From Sulfolobus acidocaldarius DSM 639 (GTDB lineage Archaea; Thermoproteota; Thermoprotei_A; Sulfolobales; Sulfolobaceae), in assembly GCF_000012285.1 (NCBI RefSeq), contig NC_007181.1, forward strand, positions 360,001 to 392,000: 32,000 nucleotides of DNA, written 5' to 3'. This document shows, one piece after another, positions 5,887 through 27,748 of this stretch (positions within the stretch are counted from its first letter, which is position 1; every line of letters starts with the position of its first letter). Made by a program: the position numbers and the translations under genes. The notes beneath the pieces were generated by a model. The model saw nothing but the letters and a program-made list of their open reading frames with translations, did not search any database and was not told the DNA's origin.

Positions 5887-8208
5887 ATGATGGAAAAAAA
5901 GGAATTCTTTGAAATTCTAAGGAACTCAATGTTAGATAGTAAGGATAGATATTACAGAAATTTAGTATTTATTCAAGATGAATCGGATATTTTACGTCAT
6001 GTTTTAGAAGTTTTACAGCTTTACTTAGACATAAATCCAGATCCCCTTATAGCATATGCATTTCATCCCTGGGCTAAGGGGGCTAAGGATAGACTTGAGG
6101 AACTAAGAAAGATTGTTAAAAATAGCGAGAAACTCATAGATATCGATTACTCAAGCTCTGAAAGATATCTAGGTTCTACTTTTGATGTTGCTATTCTAGA
6201 TTTAGTAGATAACTTTGAACCCAATCACATAGGTAGATTAGTGGATTTAGTAAGAGGTGGCGGATTAATAATACTTTACACAAACGACTTAAAGAATAAT
6301 AAGATATTTAAAAATTCTATCCTTAGGGAGGGAAAGGTACTTGATGTTTATGAAACGAGATTTATAAGAAAACTAACCGAGCATGAGGGCATCTTCGTCA
6401 TATCTAACTCCGAATACTACGCAAAGCCTTTTAAGGGTGAGGTGAAGGAAAAACCCTCACCACAATTACCTAAAAAGCCTACAATGCCAGTAGAGTTGCA
6501 TTCCTTATGCCTTAGCTCTGATCAAAACAAAGTTTTAGAGTCATTTATCGGAATGAGATACGGATCAAGAAAAGTTCTAGTTATAACGGCTTCTAGAGGA
6601 AGAGGTAAAAGTGCGGTAACTGGACTAGGTATGGCAGGTCTAATATTTAAACATGGCTTTAGAAAGGGACGAAAATACAAGATAATAGTTACTGCACCTT
6701 CAATAGCAAGCTCTTCACAGACTATGGAATTCCTCAAGAGAGGTCTTGACGCATTGGGAGTAGAATACAGGGAAAAAAGATCTCCTATGGGGTTCATAAA
6801 TAGCCTTGAAGGAGAAGGATTCAGAGTATTTTTTGAGATACCTGAAGCTACTTTAGAGCATGAGGGTGATTTACTTGTCGTGGATGAGGCAGCAGCGATA
6901 GGTATTGGGTATATTGATTCAGCTCTCAAGACATGGAAAAAGGTCGTTCTCGTAACGACTGTTCACGGTTATGAAGGTTCAGGTAAAGCATTCCTAAGAT
7001 ACCTAAATAGATTGCTTAAACAGAGAAAAACTACAGTGTATTGGGAGGAAATGAGAAAACCTCTAAGGTATGCTGAAGGCGATCCTATTGAGAAATGGTT
7101 GTACGATTCGTTATTACTTGATGCAGAACCGGAGGATGTGCAACAAGAGATCGATAAAGTGTATTTCGAAACCTTAGACAAGGAAGAGTTATTCTCAGAT
7201 GATCGTAAATTGAGGCAAGTTTATGGAATTTTGGTCACAGCTCATTACAGAAATAATCCCAATGACCTGATGATAATGGGAGATGGGATTCATCATACAA
7301 TAAAGGGATTAAGTATTGAGGGCACGAATAGTTACATAGGAGTAGTACAGATAGCTAATGAGGGAGGTTTATCTGATGAGCTAATACATTCAGCATTAAT
7401 GGGTGTGACATTTGATGGAGATCTTATACCAGATAGAATGATAAAACACTCTAGGCTGATAGAATTCGGAAAGATGAAAGGATGGAGAATTGTAAGAATA
7501 GCAGTAATGCAAGAACTACAGGACAAGGGATTCGGAAGCCAGATGTTAGAGATGATAATCGAAGATGCTAAGAGGCAGGAAATTGATTGGGTTGGATCCT
7601 CATTTATGGGAGATATGAGAGTACTTAATTTCTGGATTAGAAACGGATTCTACCCTGTTCATGTTTCGCCCAAGAAAAATGAAAAACTTGGGGATTACCC
7701 TGTAATAGTAATAAAGCCTATAAGCGAAATTGCAACTAAGGCAGTAAGAGTAGCAGCATATGTATTGAAGGAAAAACTACTTAACACCTTACATGATGTT
7801 TACTTTTCCATGGACCCAGAAATTGCCCAAATAATACTCAGTGGTATAAAAGTTCATAAAGAAGTTAAGATAAACCCGATATACGTAGATAAAGCAGTAG
7901 CATTTCTTCAAGGAGTAAGCCCATATGAATCCTCAGCCGATGGGATTCACCTACTAGCGTTAAAATACTTTTGGGATGCTAAAAGGGAATGGTCCTTAGA
8001 GCCTGAACAAGAAATTTTACTAATAGCAAAAATACTGCAAGGCAGACCATGGAGATTTACTTCAGCCTCACTAAATTCGAATAGAACCGGAGTTAATGAA
8101 ATGTTATATCAGGCTATTGCCGAATTATTATACAGGTACTATTCCTTAAATAGTGAAACAAAAGTAGGAATTAGCTTAGATAAATTGGATGATGACCAAA
8201 TAGACTGA
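5887..8208 (+). CDS. tmcA: RNA cytidine acetyltransferase (tRNA(Met) cytidine acetyltransferase TmcA / Nat10 homolog)
   Basis: 773 aa. Central helicase-type Walker A (ASRGRGKSA) and Walker B (LLVVDEAAAI), followed by a GNAT acetyl-CoA motif (QDKGFGSQM). This is the architecture characteristic of TmcA/Nat10. Confidence 0.85.
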   Translation: MMEKKEFFEILRNSMLDSKDRYYRNLVFIQDESDILRHVLEVLQLYLDINPDPLIAYAFHPWAKGAKDRLEELRKIVKNSEKLIDIDYSSSERYLGSTFDVAILDLVDNFEPNHIGRLVDLVRGGGLIILYTNDLKNNKIFKNSILREGKVLDVYETRFIRKLTEHEGIFVISNSEYYAKPFKGEVKEKPSPQLPKKPTMPVELHSLCLSSDQNKVLESFIGMRYGSRKVLVITASRGRGKSAVTGLGMAGLIFKHGFRKGRKYKIIVTAPSIASSSQTMEFLKRGLDALGVEYREKRSPMGFINSLEGEGFRVFFEIPEATLEHEGDLLVVDEAAAIGIGYIDSALKTWKKVVLVTTVHGYEGSGKAFLRYLNRLLKQRKTTVYWEEMRKPLRYAEGDPIEKWLYDSLLLDAEPEDVQQEIDKVYFETLDKEELFSDDRKLRQVYGILVTAHYRNNPNDLMIMGDGIHHTIKGLSIEGTNSYIGVVQIANEGGLSDELIHSALMGVTFDGDLIPDRMIKHSRLIEFGKMKGWRIVRIAVMQELQDKGFGSQMLEMIIEDAKRQEIDWVGSSFMGDMRVLNFWIRNGFYPVHVSPKKNEKLGDYPVIVIKPISEIATKAVRVAAYVLKEKLLNTLHDVYFSMDPEIAQIILSGIKVHKEVKINPIYVDKAVAFLQGVSPYESSADGIHLLALKYFWDAKREWSLEPEQEILLIAKILQGRPWRFTSASLNSNRTGVNEMLYQAIAELLYRYYSLNSETKVGISLDKLDDDQID

Positions 8209-8238
8209 AAGATGAAGAAATGCACCTCAACTGACTAA
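8185..8238 (+). ncRNA. Candidate C/D box sRNA overlapping the tmcA stop codon
   Basis: C box AUGAUGA 8189-8195; 9-nt spacer; D' CUGA 8205-8208 (contains the tmcA TGA stop); 3-nt linker; C' AUGAAGA 8212-8218; 12-nt guide AAUGCACCUCAA 8219-8230; D box CUGA 8231-8234. The flanks UUGG (8185-8188) and CUAA (8235-8238) can form a 4-bp terminal stem including one G-U pair. Weakness: the C-to-D' spacer is short. Confidence 0.5.
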
Positions 8239-9014
8239 ATGCTAAATATAACCAAAGATAATACAATTGCGATTGAGAACAGTTGGTGTAATCCAACCAC
8301 TATACCAGGCTTCTCAGGATTTCTGTTTATACCCCTGAAAACTAGTAAACCCACTATGCCTTCTATCAGAGCTAGAGCCAATGGAATCCACAACTGCAAT
8401 AAAATTAATGAAAGAAAGAAGATTACTCCTGCTATACTGTGCACAATCCATATCCATTGTAATCTGTTCTTAGGCTTTCTAACGTCACCTATACTGAACC
8501 TCATCTTCCTAGTTCCTGTAACCACACCACCCATGAATATTACAAAATACAAAAAGTGTGGTGGAGTAATTGCGTCTATTATGAAACTAGTAAACCTGCT
8601 AGGATCAAAACCCATTGCTATTAGAAGATATATTACCATTGTCGTATACGCTGCAATGTCATGAAAACCTTGAAATATAGATGGTAATTTTCCTGCTAGT
8701 ACGTAGAGTGTTGCCATTCCAAGTAACGCTGTAAATATAACACTGATAAATCCTGCAATAGAGAGCAGGTTAAAATCAAGAATTAAAATAGTTAAGGAAA
8801 GTAAACCCACTAAAGTTGCAGATATTCTATGCATAGCCTCAGGATCTGCTTTTCTAACAGCAAGATGAACCATGTCTCTAGTATAAGGCCATTTAGTACC
8901 CAATGAAAGACCATAGCCATAACCTTCAACTATACCCCCTAATACTATGGTCAACCCTGCTAGAAATGTGGTAGCTAAAGACAGTTCAATTATCATATGA
9001 GATAATTTTCTCAT
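8235..9014 (-). CDS. 8-TM membrane protein, probable heme A synthase (CtaA/COX15 family)
   Basis: Eight predicted helices with a conserved-looking His in helices 2, 4, 6 and 8 (HRISATL, FHDIAAY, VHSIAGV, LHQLFSI). This is the two-fold repeated His pattern of CtaA. The function is inferred only from that pattern. Confidence 0.5.
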   Translation of the reverse strand: MRKLSHMIIELSLATTFLAGLTIVLGGIVEGYGYGLSLGTKWPYTRDMVHLAVRKADPEAMHRISATLVGLLSLTILILDFNLLSIAGFISVIFTALLGMATLYVLAGKLPSIFQGFHDIAAYTTMVIYLLIAMGFDPSRFTSFIIDAITPPHFLYFVIFMGGVVTGTRKMRFSIGDVRKPKNRLQWIWIVHSIAGVIFFLSLILLQLWIPLALALIEGIVGLLVFRGINRNPEKPGIVVGLHQLFSIAIVLSLVIFSI

Positions 9015-9257
9015 ATGTTTAAAAAATTCATGTCAATGAAAATAGTTCAGAGTTAAGATGTATTTTCACGACCTATAGGAGGCATAATTGAACGACATGA
9101 TGGAAACTCAAGTGCAATTCACATCTAATATGGTGCCATGATACTGTTCAATAGAAGACTTTATACAATTTGTCTGGGATAGAGATAATTCTAGAAATCA
9201 AGATAATTTCTTTTTGGTGTAAAACTTAATCTATCATAGATAAATGTTATATTCCTG

Positions 9258-9596
9258 TTGGTTTATGAACTTATTATGAGCCTAATAGATATAATGTGGA
9301 AGCTAGTTAATTACAGTATACCTCTTGCAAATGATGATTTTGAAACGTATTTAACTAAAGATGGTACCATAACTGAGGAAGGTTTAAATTTGTGGAAAGA
9401 TGCAATAAAAGCTATTAGAGAAGCATATAGCAAAATAGATAAGGGAGATAAGCAGAGTAGTTTTAAATTGTTAAGTCAAGCTTTAGAAAAGCTAAATTCC
9501 ATAAAATCGAACAAACCCTTACCTCCAGACGCTAAAGTGAGATTCGAAGAAGTAAAAAATAATGTTTCAAAAGCAATAGAATTATTGAAGTCCTAA
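9258..9596 (+). CDS. Hypothetical helical protein (112 aa; the true start may be the ATG at 9276)
   Basis: ORF followed by T-rich tracts. I recognise no family. Confidence 0.5.
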   Translation: MVYELIMSLIDIMWKLVNYSIPLANDDFETYLTKDGTITEEGLNLWKDAIKAIREAYSKIDKGDKQSSFKLLSQALEKLNSIKSNKPLPPDAKVRFEEVKNNVSKAIELLKS

Positions 9597-9795
9597 TTTT
9601 ACACACGATTTTTATACTATATTTAAAAATCATTTATTTTAACTACCTTGATGATTAGTATTATATATTTTACCTATAAGCCATTTTTTATACTTTTCAA
9701 GGGGAACTCCCTTTAAGCTTTCATGAAACTAACGGGGGTAAACTAGGAAAACTTTTTAAAACTTTAGGACAGTAAAGCTTAAAGGGAGATGTAGT

Positions 9796-11196
9796 ATGCA
9801 ACTTTCAAAAGGTTCTTTGTCGATAAGAGAATCATATGGACAAGCAATGGCTGTAACTGCACCATTAGGAAGCGTTGTATCCACAACAACTGCAGCAATA
9901 GCTTATGCAGGAAAATCAGTCTTGTTTGCGACACTCCTAGCCTTTTTAGCGAGTTTGCTCTGGATGTTCACTTTGACAAAATATACTAAGAAAATTGCCT
10001 CTCCAGGAGGATACTATACATTCGGATCAGCTGCATGGAGAAGTAAGACCGTAGCCTACTATGAAGCTATAACTGAAGTAATAGCATATTCTTCACTAAA
10101 TGCTGTTAATTCCTTCTCAGTTTACCTATTACTGAAAGTAACTTTTCAAATGTTAAATCTTGAATTGCCAGATTATGTTCTCCCTCTCTCCCTTGTGATA
10201 GGACTAATTTATCCCACGCTCTCTTCAGTAATTCTACACATTAGAAAAGTGTTGGGATACATAGTTAGTATAAGTGCTACATTAGAAGTAATATTCTTAT
10301 ACGTTCTTTTCGGCTATGCAGTAGCCACGAGAGGATTTGATATAACATATTTATCCCCTGTTGGAACGAATTTTAGTAGTTTAGGTACTGCGATGGTTCT
10401 AACAATTGTCAGTATAGCAGGTGCAGGGGCTGCTGCTTACTTAGGAGAGGAAACCAAAAAGCCTACCTCAACTATTACCACTGGAATAAAGATTGCCTAT
10501 GTCGTAGGAGGAGGAGCAATTTTAGCAGGTACTTACGCGTTAGTAGCTCTATGGAATGAACCTATACAGACTCTAAGTAACTCTCCACAACCCTTAATTC
10601 AGGAGCTATATCCAATTAGTTTCATCGTAATGCTAATCAGTCTAATATTATCCATAAATAGTCTACTTGCTTCAAACATAGGAACAACAGTGGGTGCTGC
10701 AAGAATCTTATTTAACCTTGCAAGAGAGAAGGCTATGCCGAAAGTATTTTCTAGATTAAACTCCGAGCGAGAGCCACTTATAGCTACAGTAGTGGTCGGT
10801 TTAATTTCTGCCATATTTGCTATTTCCTCTTTAACTTATACTGGATCAGCTGATGTTGCATTTACAGAGATTAGTTTCATATCAAGCTTATTCTGGTTAG
10901 CTGGAAGGATAGTCGACAATCTAGGTGCACCAGTGTTTTACTGGAGATTAAGAGAGTTAACTCCTAAAATATTAATCGTATTCCTAGGCTCCACTACTAT
11001 TAACTTAGTTGGTATGATTGGGTCTTTACAGGCACCAGACATGTTCCAGGCTGTTTACTTGATTTCCGTGTTGGCTGCAGCTACGCTTTGGTATATTATT
11101 AAAGCCAGAAAAGGTATAGCAGGTAAATATCTTGTAGACGAAAACAATCAACTAATTACAATGGAAGAGTATTTCGCAAAAGTAAGAAGTAGATAG
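9796..11196 (+). CDS. Amino acid/polyamine permease (APC superfamily)
   Basis: 466 aa with about 12 hydrophobic helices. Composition and length are typical of APC transporters. Confidence 0.75.
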   Translation: MQLSKGSLSIRESYGQAMAVTAPLGSVVSTTTAAIAYAGKSVLFATLLAFLASLLWMFTLTKYTKKIASPGGYYTFGSAAWRSKTVAYYEAITEVIAYSSLNAVNSFSVYLLLKVTFQMLNLELPDYVLPLSLVIGLIYPTLSSVILHIRKVLGYIVSISATLEVIFLYVLFGYAVATRGFDITYLSPVGTNFSSLGTAMVLTIVSIAGAGAAAYLGEETKKPTSTITTGIKIAYVVGGGAILAGTYALVALWNEPIQTLSNSPQPLIQELYPISFIVMLISLILSINSLLASNIGTTVGAARILFNLAREKAMPKVFSRLNSEREPLIATVVVGLISAIFAISSLTYTGSADVAFTEISFISSLFWLAGRIVDNLGAPVFYWRLRELTPKILIVFLGSTTINLVGMIGSLQAPDMFQAVYLISVLAAATLWYIIKARKGIAGKYLVDENNQLITMEEYFAKVRSR

Positions 11197-11318
11197 TTCT
11201 AGTCCTAACTACTTATTTTAACTTTAGTAATATTTTAGTTTAGTCTAAATGAATAATACAGCATTCTCCTTTTTCGGTCATATAAATTAATATTCTACGA
11301 TTCGCCGATTATTATTCA

Positions 11319-11498
11319 ATGAACTCTAAACAGAGGATTGTTTTTGCAGTGGGTATCATATTAATGGCTATTTTGTTTGATTATTTAGGTTCATCATTTC
11401 AGAATATATGGATACTTGTACTTTCAATGGCTTTAGCTATTACTGGAGTGTTGATTGGGATAAGAAGTATAATTGAATATTTAGGTGAAAGAATGTAA
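11319..11498 (+). CDS. Possible small membrane protein (59 aa, two TM helices); not in the supplied ORF track
   Basis: I translated ATG 11319 to TAA 11496-11498 as MNSKQRIVFAVGIILMAILFDYLGSSFQNIWILVLSMALAITGVLIGIRSIIEYLGERM. A TATAAATT box at 11281-11288 lies about 35 nt upstream. Confidence 0.35.
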   Translation: MNSKQRIVFAVGIILMAILFDYLGSSFQNIWILVLSMALAITGVLIGIRSIIEYLGERM

Positions 11499-11658
11499 TA
11501 TAAATATATCTACAAAATTCTACAAATATTTTACCATTATATATCTAGGAAAACTCATAAATCGTTTAAGCATGTATTAGTTAGTGCAGTTCATTAAATT
11601 ACTATTTACTACGATTAACTAAATTATAATAAGTAAAGAATGAGCTCAGAGACTTAAC

Positions 11659-11668
11659 AATTATATAC
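11659..11668 (+). promoter_or_regulatory. TATA-like box (AATTATATAC) for the C/D box sRNA at 11688
   Basis: It is centred about 25-28 nt upstream of the sRNA 5' flank, the expected archaeal spacing. Confidence 0.4.
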
Positions 11669-11687
11669 TTATAATTTACACTAGATA

Positions 11688-11742
11688 TTAATGATGAGCT
11701 CGGACGTACCGATGTGTGAGGAAGGTCTTGAGTACTGATAAA
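11688..11742 (+). ncRNA. C/D box sRNA (2'-O-methylation guide)
   Basis: C box AUGAUGA 11691-11697; 11-nt spacer GCUCGGACGUA; degenerate D' CCGA 11709-11712; 3-nt loop; C' GUGAGGA 11716-11722; 12-nt guide AGGUCUUGAGUA 11723-11734; D box CUGA 11735-11738. There is a short A/U terminal stem. It is a GC-rich island within AT-rich noncoding DNA and has its own TATA box. Confidence 0.65.
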
Positions 11743-12077
11743 ATCTATAACTCTAACTTCTAAAATGAGTTTTTAGAGATTTTTAATTAAAAATTAAAGT
11801 TGAACATAAAATATTAATTTTTGATGTAACCATGAATATGTATTCATATAAACTATCTTCAACATATGCTGTTTTAAAAGAATAAATAGAATCTTTAAGT
11901 ATACTCATACTAATTTATAGCGAAAGTAATAATACTCAGCTTATGTACAGACGCGTAAATAAAGGAGAAGGATTAACGAGAAAGACAGCTTTTAACTAGG
12001 AGCTGATTAACGTTGTAAATGATTAGCCTTTAAAATGTCTCCATATAATCTTACGTTACGTAGGAAAAAGCCTCTCA

Positions 12078-12728
12078 TTAGTACCAAAATCCACATAAAC
12101 CCCTCAGTCGTGTAAAATATACGTCCATTACCTTAGTTATCACAGGAGAGCCAGTCTCTCCCTTATATATCCTGTATAACCCTTGTCTTTTTTCATTATC
12201 AGAAATTGGCACAATCATAATTCCTTTTTCTTTCATCTGTTGATATAGAGCATATGGAAAAGTAGGCGAAGATGCCCAAACAATGATCTTGTCATATGGA
12301 GATCCTGAAATGTAACCAAGGCTTCCATCCCCAAAAATCAAATGAATACCATGGTACTCCTTAAGATTATTCTTTGCTAAATTGTACGCCTCCTCATCAA
12401 ACTCAATTGTATATACATTTTCTGCCCCAACAATTTCAGCCATTAATGCAGTATAATACCCACTCCCTGTACCAATCTCTAAGACCTTATCACTCTTCTT
12501 TAATTCTAAAAGATCCACCATTTTCACTCCTAATCCCAATGCAGTAGTATTGTAATTTTTAGTAATTTGGATAGGTTGATCTATATGCTTGAGAGAATAA
12601 GCTATATCTGAATACTTAGCAGGAAGAAACTTCCTCCTGTCAAGTTTCATGAAAGCCTCCAGTACATCTGAATTTACAACTATAGTTGAGAGGTATTTTA
12701 GAATAGCTTCTTTTTCACTCGTACTCAT
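12078..12728 (-). CDS. pcm: Protein-L-isoaspartate O-methyltransferase
   Basis: SAM-binding motif [17 protein letters not shown] plus the PIMT post-I/II motifs. 216 aa. Its ATG overlaps the upstream stop (ATGA). Confidence 0.85.
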
Positions 12729-14482
12729 GTATACCTCTTCAAGTTTTCTTTTAATTCTTGTACATTGTTCTCAGCTTTAAACATTACTGGAATATCTTCC
12801 TTTAGTGCAGCCTTAAAACTAATCAATAGCCATTGACCTATATCGAAATTTAACGTCCTGTCTACCAGAGAATCTGATATACCAAATGTATCTGATATCA
12901 GTTGCCTATCATAGGGTCTTGGCAAGGTACTCACGAAGTAGGTGTGGATCTGTTGCAGTACGTTTGTATTAAGGTAAGCTAATCTCTGCGTGCTTATCAA
13001 AGCGTGAAGATGATACTTTCTACCGTGTCTAAGTAATTTTTCAACAGAGGAAGAGGACTGCTCTGTGTAGTCTTTTTGTCTAGTCTCAAACGGTATAAAT
13101 TCCTGAGCTTCGTCTAATACAAAAAGAATTACCGGTAAGGAAGAGTAGGCTCTCTTCCTCCTCATATATATATTTTCAATCAGCAAATGGGTAACTAATC
13201 TAGCATCGTCTATATTAGGTGTCTCTACCACAAATAGTCTTGGTGAAGAGGGGTCTTGATCCAATATTTCAATAGCTAAGCTCTCTACATCGTATTCTTC
13301 CACCTCTGATGGTTTAACCTGAATATATGTCTTTATGGAAGATAAGAAGGTGAATATCACTGAGCCGTCTCTGACTCCTGCTTCTCTTGCTTTCTCTTCA
13401 GCTTCTCTGAGCAGTGGGTTAATTGTATCGTCTACAATATCGTCTTTAGTTAATTTACGTTCTCTCATGAGGTTATCGAGAGATTGAAGGAGAGCCATAA
13501 AGAGAGGCTTCTGGGATGTGGAAACATATTTATCTTCTATCTGTGAACGTATCATTTCAATTAATGTGCCATAACTAAGATAACTTATCCCCTGCGGGGG
13601 AATGTATAGCCTTCTTAGTTTTTGTTCAGTATACAATTTGATAAAGCCCTTCCTTATAGATTCACGAACGTCCTCTAATTCTTCAGGTAAAACATGTGTC
13701 CTCAACAGCCTTTTTCCAGCATCTAGTTCATTAGATGGTAACCTATCTAGGGTGACTAGTCTTGAGTTTAAGGAGAGTAATTCATCTAAAAGAAGAATAG
13801 AATATTCCATTGAAACGTCTATTATTACGACTTTAAGGTCCTTGTATTTGTTTAAAGCCCTCCTAACTATTAATGAGGTTAAATTCGACTTACCTGATCC
13901 TGTGTATGCAAAAACTCCTATGTGGTAATTTATAGCCTTTAGTAAGTTTACCTTAAGATCTATCTCCTCGTTGACTGACTTACCTAGTATTGTCCCTTCA
14001 GGATAGAAAATGAACTTCTCTAGAGCTTCTGATGTGAAAAGTTTCACTTTTGAAGCAGGCAAGGGGGGTACATAGCCCTTTTTAAACTCTATCTTTCCGT
14101 CCTCTTCTTTCATTATGTAACCGACAGGTGTTGCTATAACGTCAATCCAAGCTTGATTTGTATTCCACGTTTCCTCTATCCTTCTCATTATTTCGTTTCT
14201 TAACTCTGGGGGAATGGTACCATCTAGGTTTATCATTCCAAAATGTTGAGGAATATAGTCAGTTATTTCTAAAATTAAATAGACACCCTTCCTTATGGTC
14301 TCTACGAGCAAAAGTTTTCCTACATCAATCTGTGTATCTGATGAGAAGGGAATCTCCACCATAAACGTTTTGAACGTTATAGTGCCTCTTCCATCCGCTG
14401 TTGGTCTTGTGATAGTTTTTATTTCCCTTAGCCTTCCATTAAGTTCTTTAAACAACATAATTATCCCTTTTTCCTTTTCCAC
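12725..14482 (-). CDS. HerA-like (FtsK-HerA superfamily, DUF87) ATPase
   Basis: N-terminal HAS-barrel-like segment, Walker [13 protein letters not shown], Walker [12 protein letters not shown] and an STQR sensor motif. 585 aa. Confidence 0.8.
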
Positions 14483-15159
14483 TCAATAAAACTTCTGAAT
14501 TCCCTGTAATTATTATAATTGTGAGCGATAACATCTAGTGCCTTACTACCCTTATCCCTGTAATATTTAGCAACTTTATCTACCAAGAATAATAGATAAT
14601 TGTATCCTAAAGCCTCTGGAATGGGCTCTTTGCCCAAAACATACAATAATGACAAAATATTTTCCCAGCTCCAATCTACTGTAACTTCCACAAGGAAGAC
14701 CCAAGAAAAGCTAAATAGTTTAAAATATCCTCCTCTGATACCATCTCGTTCATAAGAGGACACGAGCCAAGGTGTTTCATGATTAATGTTAGGCACATTA
14801 GCGGGATCCTTTGCAATGCTTATGATATTTTTACCTGTAAATTTATCGAATGTTAGCTTCCTGTCTAGAAATATGAGATCAACGTCTAATTTCTGAGCCT
14901 CCTCATATTCCATTTTCCTCATAACATCTTCAGGATTACAGTCTTCGCATATGTTATCCTTGTACGAAATCTCTTTCACATTATATTCATTACCGCAAAT
15001 TTCACCTTTCACTATACCCACTACAATGTAAGAAAGGTTTGCGACTGTATGGAAGCTACCGTCTATAGCCTTATAAGTTCCACACCAATTATTTTTTCCA
15101 AAAGTAGTATAAAGTACTGTGGCTGAATCACCATTATCAATCATCGCAGACGATCTCAT
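14461..15159 (-). CDS. Miniature NurA-like nuclease candidate (232 aa)
   Basis: Three motifs resemble the NurA catalytic motifs: KAIDGS (motif I), LIFLDRKL (DG-type motif) and a C-terminal [16 protein letters not shown] (compare GYPYxLxxAHxxA). It overlaps the HerA-like gene by 22 nt. It is much shorter than canonical NurA, and the assignment is by eye only. Confidence 0.5.
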
Positions 15160-16042
15160 TCCTGTAATTAGAGTATTCGTAGCTAAAAAACTTAGAGAGA
15201 GGGGTATGACGCAGTCCAGGATAGCTACACTATTAGGTGTTAGCCAGCCAGCAATAAAGCAATACCTTGATGAGGACGAACAAGAGGAAGTTAATAAGAT
15301 AAGGAAGATGGGATTAAATGAAGAGGAAATTTACGACGTCGTTAACAATGTAGTTGAACTTCTATTGAGGAATAACACTAAGTCTGCTATGTATTACATA
15401 ACAGACTTTGGTTTAAGAGTATTAAATGAATTAAAACTGTGTAAATACCATAGAGAAATAAATAATCTAATACCGCAAGACTGTGACATATGCAAATTAT
15501 TCTATCATAGTTCAGATGAAGAAATCATGGATATCGCAATTTCATTGATTCAAAATCCAATAGTAGCTCCACTTATACCTCAGGTTCTAAGCAATATTGC
15601 CTATGCAGAACAGAATGCTAAAAATGAAGACGATGTAATTGCAATTCCTGGTAGAATCACAAGAGTTCTGGGAGTACCTACACCTGCCTCAAAACCAATG
15701 AGGGGAGCTAGTAAGCATTTGTCTAGAATTCTCCTGGGTATAATAAAAAAAAGAGGAGATATAAGGGCTGTAATGAACATAAAATACGATGAGACCTTAA
15801 AAACTGTTTTCAGTCAACTAAAGCTTAAAGTAGTTTACGTTGGACCTCATGATTACGCTACAAATGAAGATATAGCAAAGGAAATTGTAGACGCATTTAC
15901 TGATGATGCTGACTGTGTAGTTCATTTAGGAGGAAAAAATATTGAGGCTAATACTTATGTCTTTGGACGAGATCCTATCGATGTAACAAAAAAAGTTCTT
16001 AATATCGCAAGGAAGTACAGGGAATTAACTGAAAATGAATAA
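15119..16042 (+). CDS. HTH + ThiN-domain protein (ThiR-like thiamine regulator candidate)
   Basis: N-terminal XRE-like HTH (MTQSRIATLLGVSQPAIKQYL) and a C-terminal region with IPQVLSNIAYA...IPGRITR, resembling the ThiN thiamine-phosphate synthase domain. The GTG start is uncertain. Confidence 0.55.
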   Translation: MAESPLSIIADDLIPVIRVFVAKKLRERGMTQSRIATLLGVSQPAIKQYLDEDEQEEVNKIRKMGLNEEEIYDVVNNVVELLLRNNTKSAMYYITDFGLRVLNELKLCKYHREINNLIPQDCDICKLFYHSSDEEIMDIAISLIQNPIVAPLIPQVLSNIAYAEQNAKNEDDVIAIPGRITRVLGVPTPASKPMRGASKHLSRILLGIIKKRGDIRAVMNIKYDETLKTVFSQLKLKVVYVGPHDYATNEDIAKEIVDAFTDDADCVVHLGGKNIEANTYVFGRDPIDVTKKVLNIARKYRELTENE

Positions 16043-21829: not shown

Positions 21830-22318
21830 ATGAAGTTTAACAATACAAAGATTGGGAAAAAATTTATTTTAAAGAATGTAGATAGCTCAATTATGACTGA
21901 AGCATCCGTAGATGAGTTGAAAAGATTATATAATCAAGGAAAGTCCATGAAGAGTATAGCTAGAGAATTAGGAATTAGTTATACTAAAGTGAGAAATATT
22001 CTCTTAAATGCAGGAGTTAATATAAGAAAGAAGAGGATTAATGAGCAGGAAGTGGTCGAGCTAGCTAAACAAGGTCATAGTGCAAGATATATCAGTAAGA
22101 TGTTAAAAATAAGTGAATCTTCAGCACTACGAATACTGAAAAAGCATAACGTGGGGAGAAAAATAAAGAAGCTGAGTGATGAGGATATAAATAAAATTAA
22201 GGAAATGTATCTTAAGGGAGAATCGATCTATAGAATTGCAAAGACTCTAGGTAAGTCCACTAACCTGGTAGTATATCATTTGAAGAGATTGGGAGTGTAT
22301 AAAAGAGGTTATACATGA
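21830..22318 (+). CDS. DNA-binding protein built from three tandem HTH repeats
   Basis: Three units of about 45 aa: GKSMKSIARELGISYTKVRNILLNAGV, GHSARYISKMLKISESSALRILKKHNV and GESIYRIAKTLGKSTNLVVYHLKRLGV. Confidence 0.6.
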   Translation: MKFNNTKIGKKFILKNVDSSIMTEASVDELKRLYNQGKSMKSIARELGISYTKVRNILLNAGVNIRKKRINEQEVVELAKQGHSARYISKMLKISESSALRILKKHNVGRKIKKLSDEDINKIKEMYLKGESIYRIAKTLGKSTNLVVYHLKRLGVYKRGYT

Positions 22319-27671: not shown

Positions 27672-27672
27672 G

Positions 27673-27748
27673 GGCTCGGGCCGGGACTTGAACCCGGGAC
27701 CTATGGGTCCACAGCCCATCGCTCTAACCAGGCTGAGCTACCCGAGCC
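27673..27748 (-). tRNA. tRNA-His (anticodon GUG) with genome-encoded G-1; CCA not encoded
   Basis: Hand-folded cloverleaf: acceptor GCUCGGG/CCCGAGC, D stem GCUC/GAGC, anticodon stem AUGGG/CCCAU with loop CUGUGGA, variable loop AGGUC, T arm CCGGG-UUCAAGU-CCCGG. An extra 5' G pairs with discriminator C73, the His identity element. No intron. Confidence 0.92.

Follow-up and report, generated by a model that had tools for sequence, protein, structure and literature searches.

What is a second NurA- and HerA-like gene pair doing on the chromosome of an archaeon whose canonical HerA is encoded elsewhere? The question is raised by three minus-strand genes of Sulfolobus acidocaldarius DSM 639, which were analysed within a window of 32,000 nucleotides (positions 360,001 to 392,000 of NC_007181.1; the window is the whole stretch of DNA studied, and all coordinates below refer to it). 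The first gene encodes a miniature NurA-family protein, the second a HerA-family ATPase and the third a protein-L-isoaspartate O-methyltransferase (PIMT); the first two are referred to here as nurA2 and herA2. An initial annotation had described them as a second, stripped-down HerA/NurA module, and they do form a separate pair whose nuclease appears to be a bare PIWI core. It is probable, if short of assured, that NurA2-HerA2 is a second, chromosomally fixed and vertically inherited accessory NurA-HerA helicase-nuclease pair that stands apart from the essential mre11-rad50-herA-nurA operon. The genes concerned are:

14461 to 15159, minus strand: nurA2, a miniature NurA-family nuclease of 232 amino acids (RefSeq WP_230937884; 227 amino acids from ATG 15144 in an older annotation)
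12725 to 14482, minus strand: herA2, a HerA-family ATPase of 585 amino acids from GTG 14482, or 577 amino acids from ATG 14458
12078 to 12728, minus strand: pcm, a protein-L-isoaspartate O-methyltransferase of 216 amino acids and the last gene of the operon
15119 to 16042, plus strand: a divergent gene for a ThiR-type regulator with an N-terminal helix-turn-helix (HTH) and a ThiN domain (Pfam ThiN, 157 bits)

All three minus-strand products match S. acidocaldarius DSM 639 entries exactly (AAY79849, AAY79847 and AAY79846). In RefSeq the 232-residue product is called "DNA double-strand break repair nuclease NurA", and the name given to the ATPase is "ATP-binding protein". When genes are counted from the epimerase at 1697-2878, taken to be Agl3/Saci_0423, the count agrees with Saci_0435 for the ATPase. 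The same designation is suggested by gene order together with the orthology table of Huang et al. 2017 (Table 2, PMC5682000), in which SiRe_1531, Sso0469, Saci_0435 and STK_01810 are equated and SiRe_1531 is termed a HerA paralogue. The canonical HerA of S. acidocaldarius is Saci_0053.

Membership of the small upstream protein in the NurA family is indicated by both profile and fold. NurA2 scores 48.3 bits against the Pfam NurA profile (PF09376, cutoff 21, E 1.2e-12) over two stretches, the better of which covers residues 124-198. When its AlphaFold2 model (pLDDT 83.5, built on 18 homologues) was compared with the PDB by Foldseek, the top match was S. solfataricus NurA (2ygk, E 4.5e-7). EndoV and Argonaute PIWI domains came next, and the NurA proteins of Thermococcus kodakarensis and Pyrococcus furiosus were also among the matches; the fold is thus NurA/RNase H-like. 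The three NurA-like motifs on which the first identification had been based (AIDGS at residues 31-35, LIFLDRKL and one further motif) are present, and all of them fall on columns that are invariant in the family. Across 18 miniature and nine long homologues the residues D33, E84, D99 and D194 do not vary. R100, K117/D118, P130/W131 and K195 are invariant columns as well. In the model the four acidic residues lie on β1, α1, the end of β4 and the C-terminal helix. The metal site of P. furiosus NurA (PfNurA) is composed of D51, E105, D126 and H411, and its histidine is an aspartate in Thermotoga maritima NurA (TmNurA) and in Argonaute (PMC3300031). Judged from the placement of secondary structure elements, as distinct from residue-level superposition, D33, E84, D99 and D194 of NurA2 would correspond to this layout, and the D-E-D-(H/D) set of metal-binding residues that marks the NurA family is present. 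The N-terminal dimerisation domain and the M domain of PfNurA are missing: only about 25 residues precede β1, and nothing corresponds to the insert of about 180 amino acids found at the M-domain position.

The fold matches that follow NurA bear on the nature of the substrate. EndoV cuts inosine-containing RNA in some organisms, and together with the Argonaute PIWI match this raises the idea that the pair serves RNA processing or RNA decay and uses a PIWI/EndoV-like core to do so, an idea with which the lack of linkage to DNA-repair genes and the proximity of RNA-modification genes such as TmcA and of C/D-box small RNAs (sRNAs) would agree. However, this neighbourhood association is weak and is not conserved beyond Sulfolobales, and every characterised NurA-HerA complex acts on DNA, which makes an RNA substrate distinctly unlikely.

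An exhaustive profile search of 1.84 billion representatives recovered the short form of NurA2 in only about 15 clusters; the weaker matches were proteins with 450-680 amino acids, in which the C-terminal block was the part that aligned. One protein of 678 amino acids (P0043) showed seven "matches" to the C-terminal motif of NurA2 and was discarded as a low-complexity repeat protein. Another short NurA-like protein (P0084, 274 amino acids) contains the motifs AVDGGS and GYPYPLILADQLA, so that small size is not confined to the NurA proteins of Sulfolobales.

The second protein is a HerA by sequence and by fold rather than a member of another P-loop family. HerA2 scores 63.9 bits against the Pfam DUF87/HerA central domain (PF01935, cutoff 23.2), HerA models head its NCBIfam and PADLOC lists, and its PDB sequence matches are all HerA. 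Its AlphaFold2 model (pLDDT 86.8) comprises an N-terminal β-barrel, with residues 3-141 mostly in β-strands, a RecA-like core and a helical insert of about 150 residues; the HAS-barrel-like N-terminus that had been proposed from the letters is thereby seen in the model. The best 50 PDB fold matches of this model are HerA proteins without exception (E 5e-24 to 6e-19), led by T. kodakarensis HerA from the HerA-NurA complex and by S. solfataricus HerA (SsoHerA). The Walker A (G187-N192, GSGKSN) and Walker B (D449-E450) motifs, likewise proposed at the outset, do not vary among 32 homologues, which reach down to an identity of 39%, and the same holds for an RxGRKY motif (R477, G479, R480 and K481). 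The placement of HerA2 relative to canonical and defence clades was made by the curated NCBIfam equivalog cutoffs. Scores against the repair-HerA equivalogs NF040937 and NF040819 are 66.9 and 40.9 bits versus cutoffs of 800 and 970, those against the anti-phage HerA equivalogs NF042943 and NF042944 are 62 and 50.6 bits versus 800 and 850, and those against the Ced DNA-import ATPases are 54 bits versus 600 for CedD and 29 versus 700 for CedB. Since every curated equivalog scores far below its cutoff, HerA2 is taken to represent a separate orthologous group.

Orthologues of this ATPase are known in the literature under a different description. Sso0469 ("SsoPK3"), the orthologue of HerA2 according to Table 2 of PMC5682000 and in agreement with gene order, phosphorylated casein, bovine serum albumin, MBP and RCM-lysozyme in vitro as a recombinant protein when Mn2+ was supplied (Lower et al. 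2004; table in PMC5007285). The label "Serine/threonine-protein kinase" has been passed by UniRef from this report to the S. tokodaii orthologue (P0091), where it is probably misleading. If the main role of HerA2 were the Ser/Thr phosphorylation of proteins in signalling, the NurA-like protein and PIMT would be its substrates or unrelated neighbours. Yet HerA2 matches no protein-kinase Pfam family at E ≤ 1, no kinase occurs among its best 50 fold matches, and its strictly conserved residues are those of the HerA Walker A/B and RxGRKY motifs. SiRe_1531 phosphorylated neither itself nor other kinases, and its overexpression slows growth (Huang et al. 2017, PMC5682000). In SiRe_0181, a comparable P-loop "kinase", the Walker motif was needed and the proposed HRD motif was not, and this makes a side reaction, catalysed by a P-loop ATPase, the simplest explanation for the SsoPK3 activity. 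A signalling kinase is accordingly considered very unlikely; the label probably describes an in vitro side activity, whereas the sequence and fold of HerA2 are those of HerA, and the published work does not discuss the NurA partner.

The canonical archaeal HerA-NurA systems (Sso2251/Sso2248, P. furiosus, and T. kodakarensis PDB 9x1l-9x1p) offer a close comparison. They share with the pair described here a NurA gene that lies directly upstream of, and overlaps, the HerA gene, a PIWI/RNase H nuclease with acidic metal ligands, and a β-barrel plus RecA-like ATPase with Walker A/B motifs, and they supply the best structural matches. They differ in that NurA2-HerA2 lies outside the mre11-rad50 operon, HerA2 reaches only 67 bits against the 800-bit cutoff, and NurA2 has 232 amino acids, lacks the N and M domains and has an aspartate in place of the histidine as fourth catalytic residue. 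The two pairs also differ in their importance for growth. By transposon sequencing (Tn-seq) in S. islandicus, the canonical nurA-rad50-mre11-herA genes (M164_0062-0065) are essential, whereas M164_1683 and M164_1684, which correspond to herA2 and nurA2 and are filed in arCOG as HerA helicase (arCOG00283) and NurA 5'-3' nuclease (arCOG05927), are non-essential (PMC6249222). The initial annotation had expected a deletion phenotype under virus challenge or DNA damage; these data establish that both genes are dispensable in S. islandicus, and no virus-challenge or DNA-damage phenotypes of the pair were found in the literature. The supplement of the same study contains a third NurA-like/HerA set in S. 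islandicus that is unrelated to NurA2-HerA2, namely M164_0014-0017, comprising an arCOG07312 NurA-like gene, an unknown gene, an arCOG07313 ATPase of about 1,010 codons and an arCOG00280 HerA, all of which are flagged non-essential.

Pairs that stand apart from mre11 and rad50 have been noted in other lineages. Deinococcus radiodurans NurA-HerA and T. maritima NurA are such cases (see also PMC9960219), and TmNurA shares the aspartate in place of the histidine; these bacterial proteins differ in lineage and in having a full-size NurA, and no close sequence relationship to them was seen in the PDB sequence searches. In Pyrobaculum several vertically inherited nurA-herA pairs occur besides the recombination pair, including a CRISPR-associated nurA-csm6-herA (Bernick et al. 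2012, PMC3396285).

Conservation of the pair beyond this genome, which the initial annotation had named as a test, is extensive. The orthologous loci carrying nurA2 comprise 12 from Sulfolobales (L001-L011 and L020, where L004 is HS-7 and L020 is S. islandicus), and in every one nurA2 directly precedes herA2; identities to the window proteins are 38-53% for NurA2 and 50-73% for HerA2. The divergence of the pair tracks that of its neighbours, with 68-82% identity for Mrp, 50-72% for HerA2 and 43-57% for ThiR. The gene order in L020 is ThiN regulator, NurA, DUF87, two small genes, ADH, XPB and Bax1, which corresponds to M164_1685, M164_1684 and M164_1683 through xpb2 (M164_1678) in the Tn-seq tables. 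In other Thermoproteota the pair is conserved with a longer NurA, as described below. The neighbours in the window are housekeeping genes: TmcA, Mrp/NUBPL, a rhomboid protein, an M50 protease, aminoacyl-tRNA synthetase-type proteins and a coenzyme A biosynthesis gene. Domain and repeat searches of the window found no mre11, rad50, cas, csm6, integrase or repeat array, in keeping with the earlier remark that mre11 and rad50 are not nearby.

These observations bear directly on a role in anti-virus defence, in which a stand-alone HerA with a nuclease effector would break down the DNA of invaders in the manner of SIR2-HerA (Nezha), DUF4297-HerA or the CRISPR type III NurA-Csm6-HerA. The best PADLOC model for HerA2 is "HerA, Type III coevolved" (123 bits), a CRISPR-type profile; PIMT and HerA2 show similarity at the domain level to the MADS components mad2 and mad8; both genes are non-essential; and the existence of CRISPR-linked nurA-herA paralogues in Pyrobaculum is established (PMC3396285). 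Anti-phage HerA structures come close to repair HerA in how well they match the HerA2 model (E 1e-19 to 1e-23), and SIR2-HerA, DUF4297-HerA and TdpAB likewise use a HerA hexamer as a platform for an effector, either a nuclease or an NADase. However, the effector families of those systems are others, and they are mobile and patchy in distribution, whereas NurA2-HerA2 belongs to the syntenic core genome, with the same housekeeping context in every sampled Sulfolobales locus that has a miniature NurA. The NCBIfam anti-phage models remain far below cutoff (above), the NurA-like protein has no PADLOC match, and, unlike the CRISPR-associated Pyrobaculum pair, NurA2-HerA2 has no csm6, cas genes or CRISPR array nearby. 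A tblastn search with HerA2 gave no homologue among 72,556 plasmid and 50,697 phage records, and a pattern scan of IMG/VR viral contigs gave none either. Because of the synteny, the vertical-looking divergence, the housekeeping neighbours and the lack of copies on plasmids, phages and viral contigs, defence is judged unlikely and a conserved chromosomal housekeeping function is favoured over it. The initial annotation had left the choice between defence and specialised DNA or RNA processing; its defence half fares poorly, given the core-genome synteny and the lack of mobile or viral copies.

The origin of the miniature nuclease can be traced by comparison with relatives outside Sulfolobales. 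In 12 loci from Marsarchaeota, Nitrososphaerales, Methanosuratincola and other Thermoproteota (L012-L019 and L022-L025), a NurA of 480-600 amino acids lies directly upstream of a herA2 orthologue. Gene order is the same as in Sulfolobales, the genes overlap or abut, HerA2 is 33-42% identical over its full length, and the long and miniature NurA2 proteins share all motifs (AIDG[ST], M..E, LDR, I.K[DE], PW, Y.KL and a nearly exact PEALGYN[YF]PLFLADK). The long proteins differ in carrying an insert of about 180 amino acids between LDR and I.K[DE], along with smaller inserts, and their loci have no ThiR or pcm linkage. The position of the large insert is that of the M domain, which interrupts the PIWI domain of PfNurA (PMC3300031), and the long orthologue in L015 covers positions 5-253 of the 254 in the Pfam NurA profile. 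As the long relatives share the motifs and carry an insert at the M position, the Sulfolobales protein is best read from these alignments as a NurA paralogue from which the accessory domains have been lost, so that the PIWI core remains. Alignment of the miniature and long families by hhalign covered the C-terminal block only, and the equivalence of the N-terminal motifs consequently rests on the MAFFT alignment.

By analogy with the canonical complex, HerA2 would form a hexameric, ATP-driven ring translocase through its N-terminal β-barrel and RecA-like core, and a dimer of the miniature NurA2, with its PIWI/RNase H core and D-E-D-D metal site, would dock on this ring in a 6:2 assembly and cut the nucleic acid fed into it. 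The substrate would most likely be DNA and the role an accessory, non-essential one in processing or clearance, with pcm carried as the last cistron of the transcript in a subset of Sulfolobales. Several points weigh against this reading of an accessory helicase-nuclease pair. The sole published activity of the ATPase orthologue is in vitro protein phosphorylation. The formation of a complex is assumed from the canonical one, and since the dimer and channel of PfNurA are shaped by its N-terminal and M domains, both missing from NurA2, the dimerisation of NurA2 and its docking on HerA2 are assumptions as well. Sequence searches of the PDB with the miniature NurA alone and with the family profile returned no NurA, and the link to NurA therefore rests on the Pfam profile and on fold. 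Finally, in the metagenomic locus L026 (herA2 and pcm at 7998-10369), whose HerA2 is 46% identical to that of the window and retains all ATPase motifs, an Mrp gene precedes herA2, and herA2 and pcm overlap at a TTGA, while adjacent nurA2 and thiR are absent; because this locus keeps herA2-pcm without an adjacent nurA2, HerA2 may act without NurA2.

The arrangement of the three genes had been described as a chain of overlaps on the minus strand, and the reading frames lie as described. The relevant junctions and candidate signals are:

14461 to 14482, minus strand: nurA2/herA2 junction; the GTG start gives a 22-nucleotide overlap, the ATG start gives TAA-tt-ATG
12725 to 12728, minus strand: ATGA start/stop overlap of herA2 and pcm, read straight off the sequence
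15183 to 15190, minus strand: TATA-like T-rich element TTTTTTAG, centred about 27 nucleotides upstream of ATG 15159
12065 to 12069, minus strand: tract of five T, 9 nucleotides past the pcm stop codon, where the operon likely ends

At the second junction the ATG of pcm and the TGA of herA2 merge as ATGA in the context ACATGAGT. At the first, the 22-nucleotide overlap that had been reported requires the GTG start and so stands only in that case; the start given in RefSeq is ATG 14458 (577 amino acids), which leaves a gap of 2 nucleotides after the nurA2 TAA. In most of the orthologous loci (L001, L003, L004, L006, L009, L011 and L020) herA2 overlaps the 3' end of nurA2 by 1-29 nucleotides, most commonly by 17-20, which renders an overlap plausible in S. 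acidocaldarius too. Coupling of the two genes is tight under either start codon. The tight or overlapping junctions, the TATA-like element and the T tract after pcm suggest that nurA2-herA2-pcm is probably a single leaderless transcript with overlapping frames. The element TTTTTTAG is kept in an eight-genome alignment, but this conservation is confounded, since the same letters encode AKKLRE of the divergent regulator gene. A scan with a sigma-70 model, which is inapplicable to an archaeon, found sites in numbers no greater than in shuffled sequence.

The pcm product is an ordinary PIMT, scoring 148 bits against Pfam PCMT (PF01135) and being an orthologue of S. tokodaii PIMT (1vbf, E 3.5e-49, residues 4-215), although it narrowly misses the NCBIfam PIMT equivalog cutoffs (153.8 versus 188 and 142.4 versus 159 bits). 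The coupling of pcm to the pair, presented at first as an unexplained feature of the module, proved to be real as a 4-nucleotide overlap but confined to some Sulfolobales lineages. The gene directly follows herA2 on the same strand in five of the 14 Sulfolobales-type loci (S. acidocaldarius, L001, L002, L010 and L026); four of these have the 4-nucleotide overlap, as TTGA or GTGA in L001, L002 and L026, and in L010 the genes are adjacent. In HS-7 pcm is close by on the opposite strand, and in Acidianus, Saccharolobus/S. islandicus, Aramenus and related loci it is not adjacent and convergent genes follow herA2. None of the 12 non-Sulfolobales loci has a pcm match. In L005, from a Sulfolobales-like metagenome-assembled genome, a weak match downstream of herA2 was considered as a pcm remnant and rejected; the gene there (8372-8947, 191 amino acids, Methyltransf_31/25/11) is a different, intact class I S-adenosylmethionine (SAM) methyltransferase, not a PIMT, and lies 21 nucleotides after herA2 on the same strand.

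This distribution allows a functional link to be weighed, whereby the HerA2 ring, with or without NurA2, would work with the isoaspartate methyltransferase in protein damage control, or PIMT would maintain a long-lived complex at high temperature. The overlap or adjacency persists across HerA2 identities of 46-73%, L026 retains herA2-pcm though nurA2 is not adjacent, and L005 has another class I SAM methyltransferase straight after herA2. Set against this are the loci in which pcm is not adjacent or lies on the opposite strand, the 12 non-Sulfolobales loci without it, and the ordinary character of the enzyme. HerA-family rings, moreover, are nucleic-acid translocases. A functional connection with pcm is held to be highly improbable.

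A steadier neighbour than pcm is the HTH-ThiN gene, which is divergent from nurA2 in all 12 nurA2-bearing Sulfolobales loci and is represented in S. islandicus by M164_1685 (arCOG00021). Its first 41 nucleotides overlap the first 41 nucleotides of nurA2 on the opposite strand (15119-15159). The overlap is exactly 41 nucleotides in the window, L001, L002, L009 and L020, which belong to several genera, and 35 nucleotides in L011; the N-termini of NurA2 and of the ThiN regulator each align from residue 1. The TATA-like element of each divergent gene falls within the coding sequence of the other, which suggests face-to-face promoters and possible transcriptional interference. A wider proposal would join these features with those of the operon: an ancient Thermoproteota housekeeping nucleic-acid machine, with a job distinct from double-strand-break resection, such as clearing or processing particular DNA or RNA, whose nuclease Sulfolobales stripped to the PIWI core and whose operon they wired to isoaspartate repair through translational coupling and to thiR through the 41-nucleotide promoter overlap. 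Taken as a whole this is speculative and rather unlikely; if it were true, the overlap would make the expression of the two units mutually interfering.

A few further features of the window may be recorded. Downstream of pcm lies an unusually long AT-rich spacer of about 880 bp (11197-12077, GC about 0.29), which contains a hydrophobic open reading frame (ORF) of 59 amino acids (11319-11498, plus strand) and little else. Within it, six C/D-box sRNA models fall on one stretch of about 54 nucleotides (11687-11740, plus strand), all below threshold (best sR5, 25 versus 40 bits, E 0.0016); the stretch starts with AUGAUGA and ends with CUGA, and may be an unannotated C/D-box sRNA. An sR6 C/D-box sRNA at 8187-8239 (plus strand, 89 bits versus a threshold of 60) overlaps the final 22 nucleotides of a TmcA/NAT10-like ORF (5887-8208) and abuts the 3' end of an opposite-strand ORF (8235-9014). 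A protein of 162 amino acids (21830-22318, plus strand) apparently consists of tandem helix-turn-helix units (HTH_38, HTH_7, HTH_58, HTH_23 and HTH_28 matches), and the sole tRNA of the window is tRNA-His (GTG) at 27672-27747 on the minus strand.

As an identification the pair is not new, since its components are annotated and the HerA paralogy has been published. The initial description of a second HerA/NurA pair holds as to family; both genes already carry arCOG assignments, RefSeq uses the name NurA and the ATPase orthologue is SsoPK3. No literature was found that treats NurA2-HerA2 as a unit: searches with the arCOG numbers gave no papers, and the DNA-repair reviews are silent on the paralogue. 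What appears to be undescribed is the conserved miniature NurA partner of SsoPK3, the derivation of this NurA from a long-NurA family by domain loss, and the partial pcm linkage together with the conserved head-to-head thiR overlap of the operon.

The comparison supplies both a partner and a plausible function for a protein still labelled an "atypical Ser/Thr kinase" in the literature and UniRef, and it defines a NurA-HerA paralogue family that is widespread in Thermoproteota. A relative that is amenable to genetic work can dispense with these genes, which makes function directly testable, and the pair is a worthwhile, if modest, experimental target. A minimal NurA, pared down to its PIWI core, could reveal which parts of the nuclease are required to dimerise, to dock on HerA and to select the strand.

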